The notes under the pieces: model-generated
Databases searched by the model: none
What the model was told of the DNA's origin: nothing
Seen by the model: the letters and a program-made list of their open reading frames with translations, nothing else
Made by a program: the position numbers and the translations under genes
Shown: piece after piece, positions 26,326 through 60,644 of the stretch
Numbering within the stretch: position 1 is the stretch's first letter
How the letters are laid out: each line of letters starts with the position of its first letter
Assembly: GCA_000004695.1 (NCBI GenBank)
Contig: CM000154.2
Location: 2,912,001 to 2,976,000 of the forward strand
Source: Dictyostelium discoideum
Lineage: Eukaryota
Length of the DNA: 64,000 nucleotides
Direction: 5' to 3'

Positions 26326-27459
<1,134 letters not shown>

Positions 27460-29849: not shown

Positions 29850-30531
29850 ATGTCAATAAAATTACCACTATCAAATATTAATAGTGGTGGTAATAGTAAT
29901 AATAGTAGTAGTAGTAATAGTACTAGTAATAATAATATAAATATTAATATAGGTAATGGTATACCTACAAATATTGAGAAAATGACATTTGAAGATTCAG
30001 AAACTCAAAAATTAAATATCAAGCAACAATCAAATAATAATACATCAACTTCAGTATGTGTATCATCGATTCATTCCTCGTCACCAATTTCATCACCAAC
30101 ATCACATCAAGTTAATAAATCATCAGGATCATTACCACCAGTAATAAAAAGATCACCAACAACAACTCATCATCATAATAGTAGTGGTAGTAATAGCAGT
30201 AGTAGTAGCAGTGGTAGTAATAATAATAATAATCAAATTAAAACAAGTAATGGAATGAATAAACCAAATCCAACAGGATTTTTATTTGGGAGTAAACCAA
30301 GAGAAAATTCACAAAATAAAATCGATGATAATAAAGGTGTAAATCTAGCAGTTAGTACAAGTAATTCTTCAAATAATTTTCATAAATCGCATTCTGAAAG
30401 TAATATTATAAATATAAATGCACCACCTGTAGAAACTGTAAATATGGAAGAAATTTATAATAATATACCTTCTTCAATTTCAATGGAAAATATTAGAGAG
30501 AATGAAAATAATAATAATAGTAGTAATAACA

Positions 30532-30573
<42 letters not shown>

Positions 30574-33500
30574 GTAATAATATTAATAATGTAAATGGTA
30601 ATAAAAGTAGTTTAGCATCATCCACTTCATCAATATCATCTCTATCATCAGTTTCGACATTATCAACTTCTAATGCTGCTACAAATACAAATACAAATGC
30701 AAATACAACATCAACTACTAAAACTACATCAACAGTAAGATCAACATCACCAACCCAATTTAAACCAAGAGTTGAATTTGATGAAAATAATCCAAATGCA
30801 ATTATTTTATCAAGACAAAGATGTAAATCCATTTCAAGTCCAAGTGATTTTAGGTTGAACCCACCATCAAATGTACATATGCCAACTAGTTCCTTATCGA
30901 CTTCAACTTCAACTACTAATGTTAATGGATTATTATTACCAAATGGTGTTGGTGGGGTTTCAATGTCTTTCACCCCATCAGGTTTACCAATGACTCCACC
31001 AACAAATTCTTCACAGGTTGATACATTACAAATGTCAACTGAAAGTATAACAATTCAACCTTCCTCTTTAGACTCTTCCTCTGAATCAGTTTCTGATGGT
31101 TTACAATCTGTTTCTGGTTCGCCTGTTACTGCTTCACCTTCACCAACTATTTCAAATAACACAAATGCTACTACTACTAATAATAATAATAATACTAATA
31201 CTAATAATAATAATAATAATAATAATAATCAGCATAATCATCACCATCATCAACATAGTCATAGTCAACAACATGATGTTTATCAAATTAAAAAAGAAAA
31301 TTTTCCATCGTCACCAACTTCACCAACTTTATTACCATCAGAAACTCATGATTTCTCTTCTGAATATTCTAGTAATCCAGGTGGTAAATGTGCAATTTGT
31401 AGAAAACCATTGTGGAGTTTCCCAATTAGTGATAAGAGTAGACGTTGTAGAGATTGTTCTTTAGTTGTACATAGAGCATGTGTTCCTTTAGCAACTGAAT
31501 GTCCATCGGCAAAGAAAAGTCCTTCAAAATTATCGGTACCAAATGGTAATCAATCGAATTCATCATCATCATCCTCCTCTTCATCATCATCCTCATCATC
31601 ATCAAACTCATCATCATCTAATACAAAAGGCCATTCGCGTACACCATCATCACCATCAGTTAGTAGTATACCAGGATTTCAATTAACTTCAAATGCGTCA
31701 CAAAATTTACATGTAAATTCTCATACATTATCATTATTAGTAAATGGTGCGACAATTGATTCAAATCATTATAAGAGAAATAAAAAATCATTAGAAGCTG
31801 GAGCAAGAGATTTTCATTTTATATTTCGTGGTTGTGGTATACCTTTAGATGAATTCCCATTGGATTCATATGTATGTGGTCTTTATTCATACTTTGCACA
31901 TGGTAGATTATATTTAACAGAGAGTTATGTTTGTTTTTATGATGGTTTCGTATTCGATAGAACTAAAGAACGTACAAAGATAATTAAAGTATCAAATATT
32001 GCATCCATTGAAAAACGTTCATCAGGTTTAAATCCAAGTGCAATTAAAATCAAAACATTTGATGATCAATCATTTATATTCACTCATTTTATGCATAGAG
32101 AGGTAGCATTTGATGATTTGGAAGGTTTATTAATTCATCAAGAAAGTTTACATTTTGCACATAGTATAGTTGCAAATAATTTCCCAGGTATGAATGAAGC
32201 AATTAGAGGTCAAACAAAGAGATTACTTTCAAGAGCACGTTTAGATGGTCATTATCAAATTCATAGTAAAATACGTTGTCCAATGCCAAGTAAAGAGATA
32301 CTATTAATGAGTGCAATTAAAAATAATAATTTAGATATGGTTGTAACTTTATTAAATTATTATTGTCAAGTGAATTCCGATGAAATTAATTCCGTTGATT
32401 CAAAAGGTTATACACCATTACATAATGCTGTATTCTCTGAATGTTCTGATCAAATTTTCATGCATTTATTGAATCAAAAGGAAGTACGTGTTAGAGAACG
32501 TAATATGGATGGTAATACACCACTTCATTATTTCTGTCAAAAATTCAAATCACCAGAATGTCAGAGAATAGTTCAAGCCATGATTGAAAAAGGTGCAAAT
32601 ATTAACGAACAAAATTATAATGGTGAAACTCCATTACATAAAGCAATCTTCAATCATTCAGTACGTTTATTAATGGTTTACATTTTGTTAAAGAATAATG
32701 CCAATGTAAACATTGTCAACAATGCTGGTGAATCACCACTTCATTATGCAGTACGTTTAGGTAGATTAGATGTTGCAAAAATGTTATTAGCTGCTGGTGC
32801 TGATCCAACAATCATTAGTTTAAGAGATAGAAAAACCGCTTTAGCTTTAGCAGTTGATTATGATGTTTGTCCTGAAATCTCTGATTTATTACGTCGTTTA
32901 GATACAATCACAACATCATTGGAAATGTATGAATTGGAAAAGTTTCAAGCATCATTGGTTGTTGAAGAACTTCAAAAAGAGAATGTTGTAGCACGTTTAG
33001 ATGAAAAATTATTGGATAAAATAGGTTGTACTGATAAAGAAGAACGTAGAAAATTCTTATCATTAAAGAGTAATCGTTTATTAATTCATCATCCAGCACG
33101 TACTCAAGGTGCTAAAATCATTTTAAAAGAAATGGAAACTATGGATATTAAAAATGGTAAATTAATCATTTCAGAAACTGAATTGGAGTATACAGAGAAA
33201 ATTGGTTCCGGTGCATCTGGTAAAGTTTTCAAAGGAATTTATCGTGGTAGAGTAGTTGCAATTAAAGTTTTAAAATCTGCCGATGATGAAATGACTCGTG
33301 AAGATTTCTTAAAAGAATTTGGTGTTTTGGCTTCATTGGAATCTCATACTATAGTTGGTTTATATGGTGTGGTTTTAGAACCAAAGATTTGTTTAGTAAT
33401 GGAATATTGTTCAAACGGTAGTATCTATCATTCCATTAGAAAGAATCCACCATCTTGGGAGAGATTCTTTTCTTTTGTTCAACAAATGTTGGCTGGTATT

Positions 33501-34232
33501 AATGCACTTCATCAATCAACTCCTCAAGTTTTACATAGAGATATTAAAACTCTAAATTTCTTGGTAAATCATAACAATAAGGTTAAAGTTGCCGATTTTG
33601 GTTTAAGTCGTTTCAATACAGAATCAAATCAAGAAACTTTAAATAAAACAAGAGGTACTTCAGTATATTGTGCTCCAGAAGTTTTCGAAGGTAAAGAATA
33701 TAATGAACGTTCCGATATGTATTCAATGGGTATTGTAATGTGGGAGATTGTCTATTGTGTTGTTTATGGTTGTTATATGATACCATATCAAGAGTATAAT
33801 AAAATGTTTAATGCTTTCCAAGTTGCCCTATTGGTTAATTCGTCAAAGAGAGTTTTAAGACCAACAATCCCAATTGGTGTACCACAAGTTTTAAAAGATT
33901 TAATCTATTGTCTATGGGATCATGACGTTTCTTCAAGACCAACCGCAACTGAAGCAATGACCGCATTGGCTGTATGTGAAAAAGAATATAAACAAAATAA
34001 AGCTCAATGGGAATTAGTAATTACTAAAAAAGAACCAACTCCACTTCCACGTGTTGCTCCATTACCTGCTTTCCCTGGTTATCGCCAATTCTATGAACAA
34101 AATCTTGATATTAAACCTATACCTGAGGAGGAACAAATTTATCAAGAAGCAATGGAAAAACAAAGAAGAAATCAAGAAGCAAGTGCAAATAGAAATCAAA
34201 AAAATAAAGAATTATTAAATAATAATAATTAA
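29850..34232 (+). CDS. arkA: Ankyrin-repeat, C1-like zinc finger and GRAM-like domain-containing TKL-group Ser/Thr protein kinase, 1460 aa, single exon. Possibly arkA.
   Basis: Domains in order:
- Long Ser/Asn/Thr-rich N-terminus.
- Cys-rich C1-like motif GGKCAICRKPLWSFPISDKSRRCRDCSLVVHRACVPLATECPS.
- GRAM-like segment FHFIFRGCGIPLDEFPLDSYVCGLYSYFAHGRLYLTESYVCFYD…IKVSNIASIEK.
- Ankyrin repeats (GYTPLHNAVFSEC…, GNTPLHYFCQ…, GETPLHKAIFNHS…, GESPLHYAVRLGRLDVAKMLLAAGADP).
- C-terminal kinase domain IGSGASGKVFKGIYRGRVVAIKVLK…HRDIKTLNFLV…VADFGLSR…YCAPEV.
Symbol is from memory (arkA, about 1460 aa); unverified. Confidence 0.75.
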
Positions 34233-38580: not shown

Positions 38581-39236
38581 AACTTATTTGATTAACATAA
38601 CAATAAGTTGTTGTTATAGTACAATATTAACATTGAGATTTATGGAGATTACACCTAACAATAATAATTTTTCTTTATTTTTAATTTTTTTTTTTTGCTT
38701 TTTGTTTTTTTTTTTTTTTTTTTCTTGGGGGGGTAATGATTAAAAATAGAAAAATTGAAGGGTAGAGAAAAGTGAAAAAAAAATTTATAATTAACACACT
38801 AATTTTTTTTCCTTTTAAGTTATCACCACTAGTAGTCAAAAAAATTTTATATAACAATCCACCTAAAATACACAATATGGTGTAACTAATTTTATTAGAA
38901 ACTACCCAAATTCAAAATTTAGGTATGTAGTGTTTTTTTTTTGTTTATTATTTTGAGTTAAATAGTATGATGTTCTATTTTCTTTGTGTTTATATAATTT
39001 TTTTTTTTAAAAAAAAAAATAATAATTTTTTTTTTAATTATTATTATTATTTTTTTTATTTTTTTTTTTTTTTACACTTTTTTTTTTTTTTTTTTATTCA
39101 TTTATTTTTTATCAAATTTATTTTTCTCATTTTTCAATACCAATATATTATTATTATTTTTTTATTTATAATTTGTATAAAAAATAAAAAATAATTATAA
39201 TAAATATAACAATCTATTAAAATTTATAAAAAAAAT

Positions 39237-42166
39237 GAATATAAAATATTTATCATTTTTATTTATATTATTCATTTTACCAATATGGTGTGAAGTTAAA
39301 GTTGAAAGTAAGTATTTTTTTTTTTTTTTTTATACAAATGATTTAAAAATATTAATTTTTTTTTTTTTTTTTTTTTATAAAAAAAATAGATTTTTATAAT
39401 AATGAAACAACTATTGTATTTGAATATAATTTAAATGATGAATATTTTACAAAATGGTTTTATTTTGATAATAATTATTTTGCCATATTCTCATGTTTTG
39501 ACAATTCAACAAATAGAATTTGTGAATTTTTACCAAGTATTTCAGATATGGATAAATTATATAGTAATAAAATTTTTTATTGTTCGATTAATCCATCATC
39601 ATCATCAGTAGAGGAATGTAATAATAGTATTTTAAAACCATCATTTTATCCAACACCAATTATATCGAAAGATTTTAAACCTCCAACAAAAGGTGGTCAA
39701 GTAGTTATTAAAGGATCATTTTTAATAAGCAGTGGTCACAAATTTCCAACACAATATGGTGATGTTAAAGTTGAAATTCCAAATTCAGGTTTAATAAATC
39801 CAACAAACATTACAATTAAATCATTTCCATTTGGATGTGGTGAACAAACAATTCGATATTATAATAATAAATTATTTAAATTTCAATATTCAAATCCAAT
39901 CCTATATTCAATATCAATTGAAAAAATAAATGAATATTCAAAAATTAAATTAATTATTAATGGTGATAATTTTTGTACAATTAGTGATAATGTTTCATTG
40001 TCAATTGGAAAATTAAATGGATTACAATTTAATTGGGAAAATAATAATAATAATAATATAATTTCAATTGAATATGATCAAATTTATTCTGGATTATATA
40101 ATGTATCATTAAATGCAAATGGATTAATTTCAAATAATTTATTATTAACGTTTAATCCAGAAATTAAAAGTGTAACATCCGTTCCAAAATCATTAGGAGG
40201 TATTATTACAATTAGAGGTAATAGATTAATATCAGAAAATGGTATGAATGATACTATTGTATCATTTGTTGGTAATCGAGAATTTGATTGTTTAATGATT
40301 TCAAATTCTGAATCCATTATTGAATGTAATCTTCTAAAAGTTGTTTTATTATTTTACGCATATTTTAATATAAATTTAATAGTTGGTGGTCAAAAACAAT
40401 TAGATGGAACAATTAAATTTGAGTTTGATAAACCATATATTAGTGGTAAATCATTAACAGGAATGAATTTAACATTATTTGGTGAAATGTTTATGAATCC
40501 CCATGTTTTTATAAATGGTATTGAATTAAATAATAATTTAACTATCTCTTTTAGTTCAACAGAATTTAAGTTCACATTACCAAATGATTTTAAAAAAGGA
40601 TCGATATTTCTTCGAAATTCTAAAAATGCTGCAGATTCAAATACAATAATATTTGAAAAATCATTTAATATTGAATCAATTGGATACTCAACAACTAGAG
40701 GTCAATTATTATCATTTCAATTTAACAATATTTTAAATGAAAATTTAAATTTAATACCAACTTTAACCTATAATTCAAGTCAATTAATTTTTAATGAACC
40801 ATTATCAACAATATTTAATAAAACAAATGGTGATTTTAAATTTGAAGTACCAATGGGTTGTGGTTCAAATAGTCCAATTCAAGGTATAATTGGTAATCAA
40901 ATTGCAAATTCAACATTTTCATATTTTGAACCAATTATTTTAAGATGTCTAACTGATGATTTTTTAATAATTTGTTATGGTTTTAATTTTGGTAGTTTAT
41001 CAATGATCAATAGTGATGATAGTGATAATAATAATAATAATAATAATAATAATATTAAAATTAATTTTTTAAATCAAATCTATACAAATAATAATATTAG
41101 TAAATTAGATCATGAAAAATTTGTTATACCATTAAAATCAAATAATCTTTATAATGGTAATATTTCAATCACTGTTTGTGGTTTAACTTCAAATTATTAT
41201 CAACTTTATTTTAAATCATCAATTAAAAATGAAGCTCGATTATTTAACCAATATTTTAAATCAAATGGTGGTGATTTAATAATTAATGGTCATAACTTCA
41301 TTTATAATAAAAGTAATTTCACATATTTACTTTGTGATGATGATGATGAATATTATAATCAAATTAAATATAATTGTAATTTTATAGATAATACATTTTA
41401 TAATTGTCCAATTAATATTATTGGGCCATTTGATAGAAAATGTATATTAAATTTCCAAAATGAAAAAATGTTTAATATAAAAATCAATTATTTATCACCA
41501 ACAGTTAATAATGTTATTTTAAATAATTTAACAATTACTGGTGGTTTAATAACTATAAATGGAAGTGATTTTTATAACCTTACAACTTTTATTGAAATTG
41601 GTAATTTAAATTGTTATAATGTTACTTTTATAAATTCAAATCAATTAAATTGCAATTTAATTACAAATAATATTTCACAACATTTAATAAGTAATAATTT
41701 ATATTATGTTAATATTTCAATTTTTAGTGGCACAAATAATAATTTAGATTTAATTAAAAATAGTAGTACTTTAATATTTAAATATGATAATTTATTAGGA
41801 AATTCAAATAGTAATAATAGTAATAATAATAATAATGGTGATGGTAGTCATGGTGATGATGGTGGTGATGGTGGGGGTGGTGATGGTGATGGTGATGGTG
41901 ATGGTGGTTCCAGTAAATTAAAATGGTTAATACCAACTATTATATGTCCAGTTATTTTTGTTGTAATGGTTATCTTTATTGGGCCTGAACTATTTAGAAG
42001 ATTCTATACCTATCCACCTCCAAAACCACCATTACCTGAACCAGGTTTTCAAAGAAGACCTTATGATCCTCCGAATTTAAATAACAGATTATATGAAAAT
42101 ACCATAACTCGATATGATAATGATCCTGATAATCTACAATTATCATTTGTTCCAATTCAACCTTAA
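39237..42166 (+). CDS. Type-I membrane glycoprotein with IPT/TIG-like repeats. It has a signal peptide, a GD-repeat stalk, a TM helix and a Pro-rich cytoplasmic tail. Tgr (tiger) family-like, about 948 aa. 2 exons: 39237..39309, 39390..42166.
   Basis: Exon 1 MNIKYLSFLFILFILPIWCEVKVE|GTAAGT is a signal peptide. The acceptor aaaaaaatag|AT at 39388-39389 (phase 1) joins to NFYNNETTIVFEY… in frame with track ORF 39548..42166. There are many NxS/T sequons. IPT/TIG-like segments (…IKSVTSVPKSLGGIITIRGNRLISENGMNDTIVSFVGNREFDCLMISNSESIIECNL…). C-terminus GDGSHGDDGGDGGGGDGDGDGDGG then TM WLIPTIICPVIFVVMVIFIG then RRFYTYPPPKPPLPEPGF. Confidence 0.7.
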
Positions 42167-42489: not shown

Positions 42490-42953
42490 TTAAAATAGAA
42501 AAAATATACTAACCCATAAGAAGAGCATTCCCACAAATGTTTCATATTGTACATATCCTGAATTTTGTGGATCAGCTTCATAGATCATTTCTTCAATCTT
42601 ATAAAATAAATATAATTTTATTTTATTTTTTTTTTTTTTTTTTTTTTGATTAGTAAGAAAATTGTAATAGGAAATTAAAATTTTAAAAAATGCTTACTTC
42701 ATCAGCTGGCATCATATCACCAAGTTCATTTAAAACTTTTCTTAAATAATCTACAGTTACATAACCATTACCATCACGATCAAAAACTTTGAAAGCTTCT
42801 ATAACTTGTGCCTAAAATAAAAAATAAAAAAATATTTTTAAATAAAAATTAAAATAATTAGAATTGGTAAATGAATTTTGTGTTTTTTTGTTTTTATAAA
42901 AAATTTTGTAATAACTGTGTACTTTTGTATTTATGTGATTCATTATTTATTTA
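42490..42953 (-). CDS. Small 2-EF-hand calmodulin-like protein (about 80 aa; myosin-I light chain MlcB/MlcC-like). 3 exons: join(42953..42933, 42811..42698, 42597..42490). First exon is low confidence.
   Basis: The minus strand encodes AQVIEAFKVFDRDGNGYVTVDYLRKVLNELGDMMPADE|GTAAGC…ttataag|IEEMIYEADPQNSGYVQYETFVGMLFLW…*. These are calmodulin C-lobe-like EF-hands (compare [23 protein letters not shown]…[23 protein letters not shown]). The middle exon is preceded by acceptor ttattttag with an in-frame stop just before it, so an upstream exon is required. The only in-frame candidate is ATGAATCACATAAATACAAAA|GTACAC (MNHINTK), which has a weak donor. The ORF track missed this gene entirely. Confidence 0.55.
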
Positions 42954-43803
42954 TTATTTGTGAAAGTTTGTTATGAAAAATAAAAAAAAAAAAAACTATT
43001 TGGATTTTTTTTTTTTTTTAATTTTTTTTTTTTATTTTGAGCATGTCATGACCCATTTTTTATTTTTATTAGAAAATTATTGATGAATTTTTGGGGTTTT
43101 TTTTTTTTTTTAATTTTTTTTTTATTTTCCAATTTGTTTTATCTTTTAAATAAATAAATCAATTCCAATACCAATTTTTTTTTTTTATATTAAATTTTGT
43201 AATTATTTTATTTATTTATTGTTTTTTTTTATTCAATTTTAATTATTTGTTTTAAAAAATAATTTAACAATCCAATAATTCTTTAATAACACAAACTATG
43301 AAATCAAATTCCAGTCCTTAAAATTCTAAATTACCGGATAATTTTTTTAATAACCTTGCACAATTAATTATGCGTGTTCGATTAATGTTTTTTTTTTTTT
43401 TTTTATACAAAGATTATTTTGGTTTGATTGTATTCCAAATTTTTTTTTTTTTTGAATTGGATAACGCAATTATTATTTGCTTCTCCTTGAGATGCTAGAT
43501 CTCATTTTATTTTATTTTTTTTTTTTTTTTTACAGGGTCTCTAAAAGAGGGGTTAGTTTACTTTTTTTTTTTTTTTTTTTTTTTTGTTTCGAATTTTGAA
43601 TTGTATTATTACTTTTGATTAAAACATCTTTTTTGTCCAAACTTTTTTCTAAATCTTTTTTTATTTTATCGTCTGGTTCGTGATTGATGTTTATGACGTA
43701 TTTGAATTGTTTTTTTTTTAATTGAGTTTTATCCACAATTTCGCTTATTTTTTGTAGGCATTTGTGTTGCTTAATATTTGTGGTGTTGTTTGTGATTTTC
43801 ATT

Positions 43804-43903
43804 NNNNNNNNNNNNNNNNNNNNNNNNNNNNNNNNNNNNNNNNNNNNNNNNNNNNNNNNNNNNNNNNNNNNNNNNNNNNNNNNNNNNNNNNNNNNNNNNN
43901 NNN
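43804..43903. other. Assembly gap (100 N) at the left edge of a tandem repeat array
   Basis: Run of n. Confidence 1.
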
Positions 43904-44640
43904 CAATAAAGTAAAAAGATGGCTTTTTAAGATAGTTTATTTATTTATTTATTTGTTTTTTAAGTCTTTTTTATATGAAAAATGAAATAATCAAAAAAAG
44001 AGATTGTTGTTGTTGTTTGTTTTTTTTCGATCTGATTATTTTTTGCTTTTTTTTGAAAATTTTGCTACGCAAAATTCTCAAAACGAAACAAATAATAAAT
44101 TACAATAAAGTAAAAAGATGGCTTTTTAAGATAGTTTATTTATTTATTTATTTGTTTTTTAAGTCTTTTTTATATGAAAAATGAAATAATCAAAAAAAGA
44201 GATTGTTGTTGTTGTTTGTTTTTTTTCGATCTGATTATTTTTTGCTTTTTTTTGAAAATTTTGCTACGCAAAATTCTCAAAACGAAACAAATAATAAATT
44301 ACAATAAAGTAAAAAGATGGCTTTTTAAGATAGTTTATTTATTTATTTATTTGTTTTTTAAGTCTTTTTTATATGAAAAATGAAATAATCAAAAAAAGAG
44401 ATTGTTGTTGTTGTTTGTTTTTTTTCGATCTGATTATTTTTTGCTTTTTTTTGAAAATTTTGCTACGCAAAATTCTCAAAACGAAACAAATAATAAATTA
44501 CAATAAAGTAAAAAGATGGCTTTTTAAGATAGTTTATTTATTTATTTATTTGTTTTTTAAGTCTTTTTTATATGAAAAATGAAATAATCAAAAAAAGAGA
44601 TTGTTGTTGTTGTTTGTTTTTTTTCGATCTCATTGTATTC
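43904..44640. repeat. Tandem repeat array, 199-bp unit, 3.7 or more copies (left side truncated by gap). The array ends about 40-50 bp upstream of tRNA-Pro.
   Basis: Track ORFs 43975, 44174 and 44373 are identical and spaced 199 nt. Unit: aaaaatgaaataatcaaaaaaagagattgttgttgttgtttgttttttttcgatctgattattttttgcttttttttgaaaattttgctacgcaaaattctcaaaacgaaacaaataataaattacaataaagtaaaaagatggctttttaagatagtttatttatttatttatttgttttttaagtcttttttatatg. The last copy diverges after …ttttttttcgatct. Confidence 0.95.
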
Positions 44641-44679
44641 CAAATAATTTTAAGCGTTCCAAATCCCAAATTTCAAAAT

Positions 44680-44750
44680 GGGAGATTAGTTAAGTGGTAT
44701 AATGCTACCTTTGGGTGGTAGCGTCCTGAGTTCGATTCTCGGATCTCCCC
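44680..44750 (+). tRNA. tRNA-Pro (anticodon UGG), 71 nt without CCA
   Basis: Cloverleaf read by hand:
- Acceptor GGGAGAT/ATCTCCC (7 bp), discriminator C.
- D-arm GTTA-AGTGGTA-TAAT.
- Anticodon stem CTACC/GGTAG with loop TTTGGGT, giving anticodon TGG.
- T-stem CTGAG/CTCGG with loop TTCGATT (B box).
An identical copy lies on the minus strand at 58447..58517. Confidence 0.85.
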
Positions 44751-58446: not shown

Positions 58447-58517
58447 GGGGAGATCCGAGAATCGAACTCAGGACGCTACCACCCAAAGGTAGCATTATAC
58501 CACTTAACTAATCTCCC
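58447..58517 (-). tRNA. tRNA-Pro (UGG), second identical copy, minus strand
   Basis: The reverse complement of 58447-58517 is identical to the 44680-44750 tRNA. The 3' flank, including the ex-B box gttcgattcc (complement of 58406-58415), is conserved. Confidence 0.85.
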
Positions 58518-59495: not shown

Positions 59496-60644
59496 ATGAA
59501 TAAATTAATATTAAATGTTCTATTTATAGCAATAATTATTTGTGGTGTTGTAAATTCTTTAGGTTTTACAAGTACAACAACATTAATTGTTGATGTAACT
59601 CAAAATAACCAATATCCAAAATATGGAACATGTGGTACTGCCAGTAAAACATGTAATAATATTCAAGATGCAATTAATTATTATAATAGAATTTCCCAAA
59701 ATTCCAATATCCAACAATTAAATTTATTATTAGCCGATGGTGTATTTAATAATACAAATAATTTTATTGAATTTAAAAAATTCAATACAACTATTTCTCC
59801 ATTAAATGTTGGATCTGAAAATGTAATTTTCGATGGTTCAGTAGGTACTAAATCCAAGGAAACCCTATTCTCATTTGTCAGCTCAACAATTTGGATTACC
59901 GGTATTCAATTTGTTAATTTCCAAAGTGAAAGTTCTTTAATCTATAGTGAATCTGGCCAAATCAATATTGACCAATGCTCTTTCAAAAATGTTTCAAGTA
60001 AAGATGGCACTGTTTATTTAAAGAGTTCAAATAGTTTAATCTCAAATACAATTTTCACATCAAACTCTGTCAAGAAAACTTCCGATTCCGCCTCAGTTAT
60101 CAGCTTTTTCACAAGCTACACAAATAAATTCATAATCTCCAAATGCCAATTCAACAATAATGTCGCATTGAATGGCGGTGCCATTTACGCCAAAAACACT
60201 GCACTTATTACTGTTCCAGATCCACTTGTGTCCTTGATTGAGAATACCCTTTTCAATGGTAATGTTGCAAGTGGAAAAGGCGGTGCACTCTACACTGACA
60301 ATATTCTATTAATCGTCGATTCAAATGTTTTCACTAATAACACCTCACCAACTGGTAGTATTATTAATTTAAACAATGGTCTTATGAATATTACCTCTTC
60401 TTCATTCTACTCTGGAACTAGTTTAAACTATTTCTTATCAACTATTATCTATACAACTAAATCAGATTTAAATATTGATGATAGTACTTTTGATAGAAGT
60501 TTTTCAGTTGCAATTAATTGTGATTCTTCAACTGTTATAACTCAAAATAATAATCTTTCACTCAGATTAGTTTGTTATAATTGTATTTCAATTATTGAAG
60601 GTACTCAAGATTGTCAAGGAGTTCCAAAAAATTTAGATTACTAA
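59496..60644 (+). CDS. Secreted right-handed parallel beta-helix repeat protein (pectin-lyase-fold-like), 382 aa, signal peptide
   Basis: MNKLILNVLFIAIIICGVVNS signal peptide. Repeated ~22-residue Asn/Ser/Thr/Gly-rich turns (NNVALNGGAIYAKNTALITV, NGNVASGKGGALYTDNILLIVDSNVFTNN, …) typical of PbH1 beta-helix repeats. Many NxS/T sites. Cys-rich C-terminus. Confidence 0.6.
   Translation: MNKLILNVLFIAIIICGVVNSLGFTSTTTLIVDVTQNNQYPKYGTCGTASKTCNNIQDAINYYNRISQNSNIQQLNLLLADGVFNNTNNFIEFKKFNTTISPLNVGSENVIFDGSVGTKSKETLFSFVSSTIWITGIQFVNFQSESSLIYSESGQINIDQCSFKNVSSKDGTVYLKSSNSLISNTIFTSNSVKKTSDSASVISFFTSYTNKFIISKCQFNNNVALNGGAIYAKNTALITVPDPLVSLIENTLFNGNVASGKGGALYTDNILLIVDSNVFTNNTSPTGSIINLNNGLMNITSSSFYSGTSLNYFLSTIIYTTKSDLNIDDSTFDRSFSVAINCDSSTVITQNNNLSLRLVCYNCISIIEGTQDCQGVPKNLDY

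Follow-up and report, generated by a model that had tools for sequence, protein, structure and literature searches.

tgrT1 of Dictyostelium discoideum: a solitary, single-copy Tgr family gene with a fast-evolving ectodomain and a near-invariant cytoplasmic tail

Gene structure and identity

The gene studied here lies at positions 39235-42166 of a 64,000-nucleotide stretch of the Dictyostelium discoideum genome (assembly GCA_000004695.1, contig CM000154.2, positions 2,912,001 to 2,976,000, forward strand), referred to below as the window. The base composition of the window is ~20% GC. The gene is tgrT1, which belongs to the Tgr ("tiger") family and is solitary and single-copy. A first-pass annotation, made from the letters of the window, had reported a Tgr-like IPT/TIG glycoprotein at 39237-42166. 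It had the locus and the end right; its start at 39237 falls two bases late, on the third base of the ATG (39235-39237). Its family call is borne out by the Ig_TgrO1 and TIG matches given below and by the literature, in which the gene is named tgrT1.

A long open reading frame (ORF) occupies 39548-42166 on the forward strand, and upstream reading adds the ATG and a 73-nt first exon. The resulting gene model is as follows.

39235-42166, forward strand: whole gene, two exons, predicted type I membrane protein of 949 amino acids (aa)
39235..39307, forward strand: exon 1, 73 nt, with the ATG, the signal peptide (residues 1-20, MNIKYLSFLFILFILPIWCE) and the first mature residues
39308..39389, forward strand: sole intron, 82 nt, GTAAGT...TAG, phase 1, position kept in orthologues
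39390..42166, forward strand: exon 2, in frame, including the stop codon at 42164-42166

The 73-nt exon 1 and the phase-1 intron are found at the identical position in the orthologues of four other genomes. Their introns are 84, 76, 71 and 114 nt long, and all of the orthologues begin with MNIK. The 949-aa model is identical to KAM9947766.1, which was annotated independently in a strain with DNA 99.84% identical over 14.6 kb. The protein is also a 100% match to the hypothetical protein DDB_G0289561 of D. discoideum AX4. Exon 1 is absent from the AX4 annotation, which is flagged "partial": the 924-aa RefSeq protein XP_636164.1 lacks 25 N-terminal residues and begins precisely at exon 2, therefore only the signal-peptide exon is missing from it. 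These residues are present in the newer AX2-like annotation and in all orthologues.

DDB_G0289561 was named tgrT1, the 20th tgr subfamily, by Holland et al. (bioRxiv 2025; PNAS 122:e2520843122), and tgrT was unnamed before 2025; membership in the Tgr family is thus already published. In the same work, tgrF, G, L, M, N, P, Q, R, S and T occur once per genome, form clades that mirror the species tree and are called "comparatively old and evolutionarily static". The single-copy subfamilies have 80-90% amino acid identity within the discoideum clade, similar to curated tgrB1, and tgrT forms a long branch by itself in the published tgr tree (Holland et al., PNAS 122:e2520843122). tgrT1 resembles tgrF, G, L, M, N, P, Q, R and S in copy number, in species-tree topology and in this identity range. 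A singleton genomic arrangement is also found elsewhere in the family, for example in tgrR1.

Synteny and copy number

Syntenic loci were compared from six genomes: D. discoideum ACTFIR, ACTFIW and the AX2-like ACTFIT, D. citrinum, D. firmibasis and D. dimigraforme. Upstream gene order and the single copy of tgrT were conserved in all six. ACTFIR and ACTFIW are labelled D. discoideum. Because NCBI puts the cryptic lineages under other prefixes labelled "cf. discoideum" (ACTFIY, ACTFIZ), we infer that ACTFIR and ACTFIW are probably CR116C (Costa Rica) and OT3A (Mexico), the "tropical" isolates. CR116C and OT3A form macrocysts with AX2 (Holland et al., PNAS 122:e2520843122).

By tblastn, no second tgr-like sequence was detected in the 64-kb window or within 10 kb on either side of the gene in three other genomes. 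The divergent upstream neighbour of tgrT1 has no Pfam domain and no TIG domain. Unlike tgrB1 and tgrC1, which form a head-to-head pair with a common promoter at a locus of rapid duplication, rearrangement and gain or loss, tgrT1 is unpaired, has no shared promoter and is a single-copy gene at a stable syntenic locus on a different chromosome. The tgrB1/tgrC1 type is further marked by extreme intraspecific polymorphism, by trans binding between cells, by segregation of strains with mismatched alleles and by expression at ~9 h of development.

Domain architecture

In the whole protein, Pfam profiles matched Ig_TgrO1 (PF24612, E 2e-19) and TIG (PF01833, E 5e-9), both over their curated cut-offs (27.9 bits and 20.9 bits, respectively). 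A TIG/IPT profile search had been proposed with the first-pass annotation, and both families are thus above threshold; TIG/IPT matches were not missing, nor was the best homology to a different family. Nine putative modules were then delimited and scanned separately against Pfam, and a structure was modelled with AlphaFold (AF2) from a 14-sequence alignment that included distant paralogues. This model had a predicted local distance difference test score (pLDDT) of 75.5; one from a four-orthologue alignment (pLDDT 32) was discarded. The ectodomain consists of an N-terminal beta domain followed by eight Ig-like modules (M1-M8), two of them Ig_TgrO1, three TIG and three recognized from the AlphaFold model alone.

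39295..39649 (including the intron), forward strand: N-terminal beta domain, residues 21-111; no Pfam match, 8 strands, pLDDT ~84
39650..39895, forward strand: M1, residues 112-193, TgrO1-like Ig; PF24612 E 2e-15, pLDDT ~82
39896..40156, forward strand: M2, residues 194-280, IPT/TIG; PF01833 E 7e-5, 23.2 bits
40157..40432, forward strand: M3, residues 281-372, IPT/TIG, the most variable module; PF01833 E 2e-4, 22.0 bits
40433..40666, forward strand: M4, residues 373-450, Ig-like by model only; no Pfam match, 6 strands, pLDDT ~79
40667..40930, forward strand: M5, residues 451-538, second TgrO1-like Ig; PF24612 E 3e-11
40931..41215, forward strand: M6, residues 539-633, Ig-like by model only; no Pfam match, 7 strands, pLDDT ~77
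41216..41497, forward strand: M7, residues 634-727, Ig-like by model only, four invariant Cys (673, 687, 697, 709); no Pfam match
41498..41791, forward strand: M8, residues 728-825, membrane-proximal, TIG-like; PF01833 E 7e-4, 19.9 bits, just below the 20.9 cut-off
41792..41914, forward strand: low-complexity linker, residues 826-866, an Asn/Ser run and then a Gly-Asp run; pLDDT <50
41915..41986, forward strand: juxtamembrane KLKW motif and single transmembrane (TM) helix, residues 867-890; hydropathy profile and AlphaFold helix
41987..42163, forward strand: cytoplasmic tail, residues 891-949, 59 aa, Pro/Tyr-rich, near-invariant and tgrT-specific

All nine modules are beta-rich in the AlphaFold model, with 6-8 strands each and a mean pLDDT of 77-84, and the linker and the tail are disordered. 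The N-terminal domain, common to Tgr paralogues, has four invariant Cys (60, 69, 89, 101). M6 carries a poly-Asn loop at residues ~566-577, with a loop pLDDT <50. A predicted signal peptide, with a hydrophobic h-region at residues 3-23 in the Kyte-Doolittle (KD) profile, is encoded by exon 1 and kept in all orthologues. The KD maximum of 2.8 at residues 870-890 marks the sole segment of its kind, the TM helix. In a module-versus-module comparison with hhalign, aimed at a possible four-module unit present twice (Ig_TgrO1-TIG-TIG-x), the best pair, M3-M8, reached 16% probability, and M1-M5 3.6%.

The signal peptide, IPT/TIG-like repeats, single TM and Pro-rich tail of the first-pass annotation were all confirmed. 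Two other features that it had listed fared less well. The protein had been described as rich in N-glycosylation sites. Its ectodomain, 16% Asn, has 24 sequons, compared with 20.2 +/- 4.0 in composition-preserving shuffles, and only 7 of the 61 alignment columns with a sequon keep it throughout the five sequences; the apparent enrichment is a composition effect. The Gly-Asp run, described as a stalk, is present at residues ~840-864, but a GGT/GAT microsatellite (41835-41908) encodes it, and it counts as low-complexity linker rather than as a conserved element. Its length differs between strains, it is missing in D. citrinum, and the linker as a whole is unconserved between species.

Relatives within and outside the Tgr family

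A phmmer search of 1.84 billion (1.84e9) representatives, with the deposited protein as query, returned 46 relatives at E <= 1e-3. Besides the orthologue, the best had 31% identity. Ten of the relatives were looked up, and all were from group-4 Dictyostelium and named IPT/TIG or "TgrO1-like". Paralogue alignments begin at query residues 2-7, and F58, C60 and C69 are nearly invariant in 14 sequences. Since the alignments start inside the N-terminal domain with its near-invariant Cys, the homology is full-length. Homologue searches with the full protein, with a low-complexity-stripped version and with a 14-sequence profile led to the same four ortholog clusters only, with Asn-rich words swamping candidate selection.

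Among the closest known counterparts are paralogues of the TgrO1-like/AHIO type (for example, D. discoideum XP_629455.1 / Q54CT6 and D. citrinum KAN0037661.1). They are homologous to tgrT1 over nearly the full ectodomain, with 26-31% identity and E 2e-21 to 9e-53, and have in common with it the N-terminal Cys domain and the Ig_TgrO1 modules. In contrast to tgrT1, such subfamilies are mobile and multi-copy and can reach 17 copies in one genome (Holland et al., PNAS 122:e2520843122). Their tails are unrelated to that of TgrT or absent: Q54CT6 has 17 aa, and several proteins stop at a hydrophobic C-terminus. In 60 or more relatives compared, the cytoplasmic tails ranged from 0 to ~190 aa and were unrelated to the TgrT tail. 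The only C-terminal feature common to TgrT and its relatives is a juxtamembrane K/R-W-L-x-P motif.

A side observation concerns the Tgr relatives P0016, P0030, P0035, P0045 and P0063-P0068, which have a hydrophobic C-terminus with 0-3 residues beyond it. This suggests glycosylphosphatidylinositol (GPI)-anchor signals rather than a TM with a tail, in which case anchoring would differ among tgr subfamilies.

TgrB1 and TgrC1 have the family name in common with tgrT1, and also its general layout, in which IPT/Ig-like E-set domains are strung between a signal sequence and one TM. In tgrB1, too, amino acid identity in the discoideum clade is 80-90% (curated tgrB1) and divergence is uneven along the gene. 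Different from both is the 59-aa, subfamily-specific tail of tgrT1. All characterised Tgr family members act in cell-cell recognition during development.

Outside the family, a plexin-A IPT profile match maps to M3. Pfam scans found no match to Sema or PSI in tgrT1 even at E <= 10. Unlike plexin-A and Met, tgrT1 has neither Sema/PSI nor a cytoplasmic kinase or GTPase-activating (GAP) domain. The IPT stalks of plexin-A and Met have 12-16% identity to tgrT1, and the likeness is one of IPT fold only, not of orthology.

Allelic diversity and evolutionary rates

Within D. discoideum, three distinct alleles from geographically distant, diverged lineages were compared. AX4 and the AX2-like strain have the same allele, and those of the two tropical isolates are mutually close (rate of nonsynonymous substitution, dN, 0.017), so that alleles track strain relatedness. 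Between AX4 and the two tropical isolates, ~12% of the aligned residues differ, with 84% identity by local alignment and 84-88% overall. Flanking genes in the same comparison are 97-99.8% identical. Two other origins of the 84% allele (P0002) were considered and rejected. Synteny on both flanks rules out a paralogue, and the label speaks against a cryptic species: P0002 and P0006 are both labelled D. discoideum, and the cryptic lineages "cf. discoideum".

The full codon alignment of AX4 with each tropical allele gave dN 0.060, a synonymous rate (dS) of 0.12-0.13 and dN/dS 0.47-0.49. Across all comparisons, dN/dS was 0.47-0.62 in tgrT1 and 0.00-0.20 in the flanking genes. Against ACTFIR, D. citrinum and D. 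firmibasis, in this order, the rates were the following.

tgrT1 exon 2: amino acid identity 83, 64 and 53%; dN/dS 0.55, 0.57 and 0.61
Eight flanking ORFs: amino acid identity 74-99.8% (ACTFIR 97-99.8); dN/dS 0.00-0.20

The product of one flanking gene, the upstream neighbour two genes away (29850-34232, forward strand), is 1460 aa long and carries C1, GRAM, ankyrin-repeat and protein-kinase domains. Conserved to an extreme degree, it was 99.8, 93 and 90% identical in the three comparisons, with dN/dS 0.01, 0.07 and 0.07.

Divergence was uneven along the gene. AX4 and P0002 differ at 20/87 residues in M2, 26/92 in M3, 16/78 in M4 and 15/88 in M5, and at 0/98 in M8, 0/24 in the TM and 1/59 in the tail. 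Against either tropical allele, 26/92 residues differ in M3, compared with 0/98 and 1/98 in M8. Both amino acid and silent divergence within D. discoideum peak in one zone.

39767..40666, forward strand: fast-evolving zone, residues 151-450 (roughly M2-M4)

Silent divergence between AX4 and the tropical alleles reached dS 0.23 in residues 151-450 and was 0.016 in residues 721-830 (M8; 41477-41806), a ~14-fold contrast along the gene; the flanks had 0.03-0.10. Some 60-codon segments in residues 300-390 reached dN/dS 1-1.7. For residues 271-450 the bootstrap interval was 0.36-1.09, no segment was significantly >1 by bootstrap, and the overall ratio was <1. The McDonald-Kreitman (MK) test was non-significant (polymorphic nonsynonymous and silent changes, Pn 140 and Ps 73; fixed, Dn 319 and Ds 122; neutrality index, NI, 0.73; p = 0.10). 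Mapped on the AlphaFold strands, substitutions were not enriched in loops. The tgrT1 ectodomain is clearly fast-evolving and an outlier of its neighbourhood, with no significant proof of positive or balancing selection.

The high allelic diversity that the first-pass annotation had thought possible is therefore present to a moderate degree, at 84-88% protein identity compared with 97-99.8% in the flanks. The likeness to a polymorphic allorecognition gene is partial, however: dN/dS is <1, the MK test is non-significant, there is no adjacent partner tgr and the locus is syntenic and single-copy. The comparison of natural isolates that it had proposed revealed the divergence of M2-M5 relative to the flanks, but it covers three distinct alleles and yielded no significant selection signal.

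Could tgrT1 be a polymorphic kin or allorecognition determinant, in which diversifying or balancing selection keeps divergent M2-M5 alleles in parallel to tgrB1/C1? Several observations would fit. About 12% of residues differ between AX4 and two tropical isolates that are, as we infer, mating-compatible with it, while the neighbours differ by 0.2-3%. The published tgrT identity range of 80-90% equals that of curated tgrB1, residues 300-390 include segments with dN/dS 1-1.7, and the raised dS in residues 151-450 hints at older allelic segments joined by recombination. However, the overall ratio below 1, the lack of any segment significantly above it and the MK result do not call for such selection, and the alleles follow strain relatedness. 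tgrT1 also has no head-to-head tgr partner and no copy-number or structural dynamism, belongs to a published class of single-copy, "static" genes and is a pseudogene in D. dimigraforme (see below). We consider this role unlikely.

The silent changes themselves gave a mixed picture. They numbered 29/229 in residues 151-450 and 22/439 in residues 451-949 (Fisher p = 6e-4, with regions picked post hoc), and an unbiased single-breakpoint permutation test (max-chi-square) gave p = 0.14. A possible reading is a mosaic gene, recombined from older and younger allelic segments, though significance is reached in the post hoc test only. An extended version of the idea would make tgrT1 an orphan, unpaired receptor with old M2-M5 alleles under diversifying or balancing selection, shuffled by intragenic recombination, and with a tail that feeds conserved signalling. 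It would then give a second self/non-self cue independent of tgrB1/C1, perhaps a homophilic one. We regard this as quite improbable.

Constraint on the tail and loss in D. dimigraforme

Identity in the TM and the 59-aa tail (PELFRRFYTYPPPKPPLPEPGFQRRPYDPPNLNNRLYENTITRYDNDPDNLQLSFVPIQP) is 85-98% among all the species compared. Tail dN/dS is 0.07-0.17 while dS reaches 0.84, and TM dN/dS is 0, 0.12 and 0.11. Besides PPLP/PxxP-like motifs read by eye, the Pro-rich tail has five Tyr that are invariant, and it is disordered by prediction. It occurs in no paralogue. We propose that it docks onto a conserved partner in the cytoplasm. The ORF is uninterrupted in five genomes, from AX4 to D. firmibasis, with 20 invariant Cys and the intron position kept.

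In D. dimigraforme (GCA_054859025.1, L006:6001-8142), the syntenic tgrT is annotated as two fragments of 176 aa and 434 aa. Exon 2 has in-frame stops, residues ~120-394 (~275 aa, M1-M4) are deleted, and M5 contains stops and frameshifts. M6-M8, the TM and the tail are still well preserved, with TM and tail ~90% conserved. Judged by these lesions, this tgrT is a recent pseudogene. The gene is therefore not indispensable: at least one lineage does without it. The published summary, by contrast, has tgrT as single copy in each genome. The loss also sets tgrT apart from the published description of the other single-copy tgr subfamilies, as does the AX4 model that is still "partial". Annotated orthologues were not retrieved for the "cf. 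discoideum" strains, other D. citrinum strains and D. intermedium, which reflects either an annotation gap or loss.

The pseudogene bears on the main alternative for the fast ectodomain, relaxed constraint. By this account tgrT1 is weakly constrained and drifting toward loss, and its raised dN/dS results from relaxed purifying selection on a redundant ectodomain. A ratio of ~0.5-0.6 over nearly the whole ectodomain, within and between species, would be expected, as would an MK test compatible with neutrality and substitutions that are equal in strands and loops. The recent loss in D. dimigraforme and the several other sequenced strains that yielded no annotated orthologue also agree with it, as does the low expression of many non-B1/C1 tgr genes in the literature (Holland et al., PNAS 122:e2520843122). 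Against this, the ORF and the 20 Cys have been kept over a divergence that Holland et al. equate to human-mouse. TM, tail and M8 are under strong purifying selection (dN/dS 0-0.17), the signal-peptide exon and the intron are conserved, and even the ectodomain dN/dS is well <1. On balance, we judge this account of tgrT1 fairly unlikely.

Host receptors that are under pressure from pathogens typically combine a fast extracellular region and a conserved signalling tail. An arms race with a non-conspecific ligand, whether bacterial, chlamydial or from a predator, that exploits the receptor would produce this combination, and several sequenced isolates carry Chlamydiae endosymbionts (Holland et al., PNAS 122:e2520843122). 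Nothing ties tgrT1 to any microbe, however, and the characterised family members act in developmental cell-cell recognition, which makes an arms race highly improbable.

Proposed function

The best explanation, which we hold to be reasonably probable, is that tgrT1 encodes a solitary Tgr surface receptor, with variable outer modules and a constant tail, that has an accessory adhesion or recognition role in multicellular development. Behind the predicted signal peptide, the modelled protein is a rod of nine beta-sandwich modules, followed by a flexible linker, one TM and a disordered tail. The variable outer modules could be the cell-cell binding face, by analogy with TgrB1/TgrC1 and plexin/Met, and their specificity would either drift or be selected to change. 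Through its PPLP/PxxP and tyrosine motifs, the constant tail would link such binding to a conserved partner in the cytoplasm. We propose this receptor mechanism because of the architecture and the other family members. The most likely role of tgrT1 is that of an accessory receptor for adhesion or recognition. It probably does not act as a primary determinant of allorecognition in the way of tgrB1/C1; membership of an allorecognition-type family does not make it an allorecognition gene.

Several points weigh against this proposal. In the literature on DDB_G0289561, no evidence on expression, localisation, binding or knockout was found. An ectodomain dN/dS of ~0.5-0.6 is equally expected from relaxed constraint, and the gene has become a pseudogene in D. 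dimigraforme. The even spread of substitutions over loops and strands demonstrates no "binding-face" pattern, and the tail motifs were identified by eye.

Beyond what has been published, the analysis gives a corrected AX4 gene model with its signal-peptide exon and a nine-module domain map. It further reveals that dN/dS exceeds that of the flanking genes 4- to 50-fold, with the excess concentrated in M2-M5, that strong purifying selection acts on the subfamily-specific tail, and that D. dimigraforme has a recent pseudogene. If the ectodomain variation is selected, recognition specificity can also reside in tgr genes of static copy number; if it is not, tgrT1 is an ordinary fast-drifting surface protein. 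Neither outcome shifts current understanding much without experiments.

Other features of the window

Directly downstream of tgrT1, tail to tail with it, lies a small multi-exon EF-hand gene (~42500-42820, reverse strand). It is called at two of the compared loci (L001, 111 aa; L003, 74 aa) and uncalled at those of D. citrinum (L002) and ACTFIW (L004). Further on, a 100-N assembly gap spans 43804-43903. Two tandem copies of a 1047-aa RVT_1 retroelement occupy this position in the long-read AX2-like assembly (L005), and their ends match the sequence on the near side of the gap (43591-43803). On its far side come approximately four tandem repeats of ~195 bp, which end ~50 bp upstream of a tRNA-Pro(UGG) gene at 44680-44750. 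The region 43591-44750 looks like a tRNA-gene-targeted non-long-terminal-repeat (non-LTR) retrotransposon of the TRE5 type, apparently collapsed in the AX4 reference.

Three more features were recorded in the window.

26326-27456, reverse strand: full-length actin gene (PF00022, E 7e-152)
58447-58517, reverse strand: second tRNA-Pro(UGG) gene
59496-60644, forward strand: ORF of 382 aa with a Chlamydia polymorphic membrane protein repeat (PF02415, E 1e-6, 28.7 bits, cut-off 20.6), unusual for an amoeba gene

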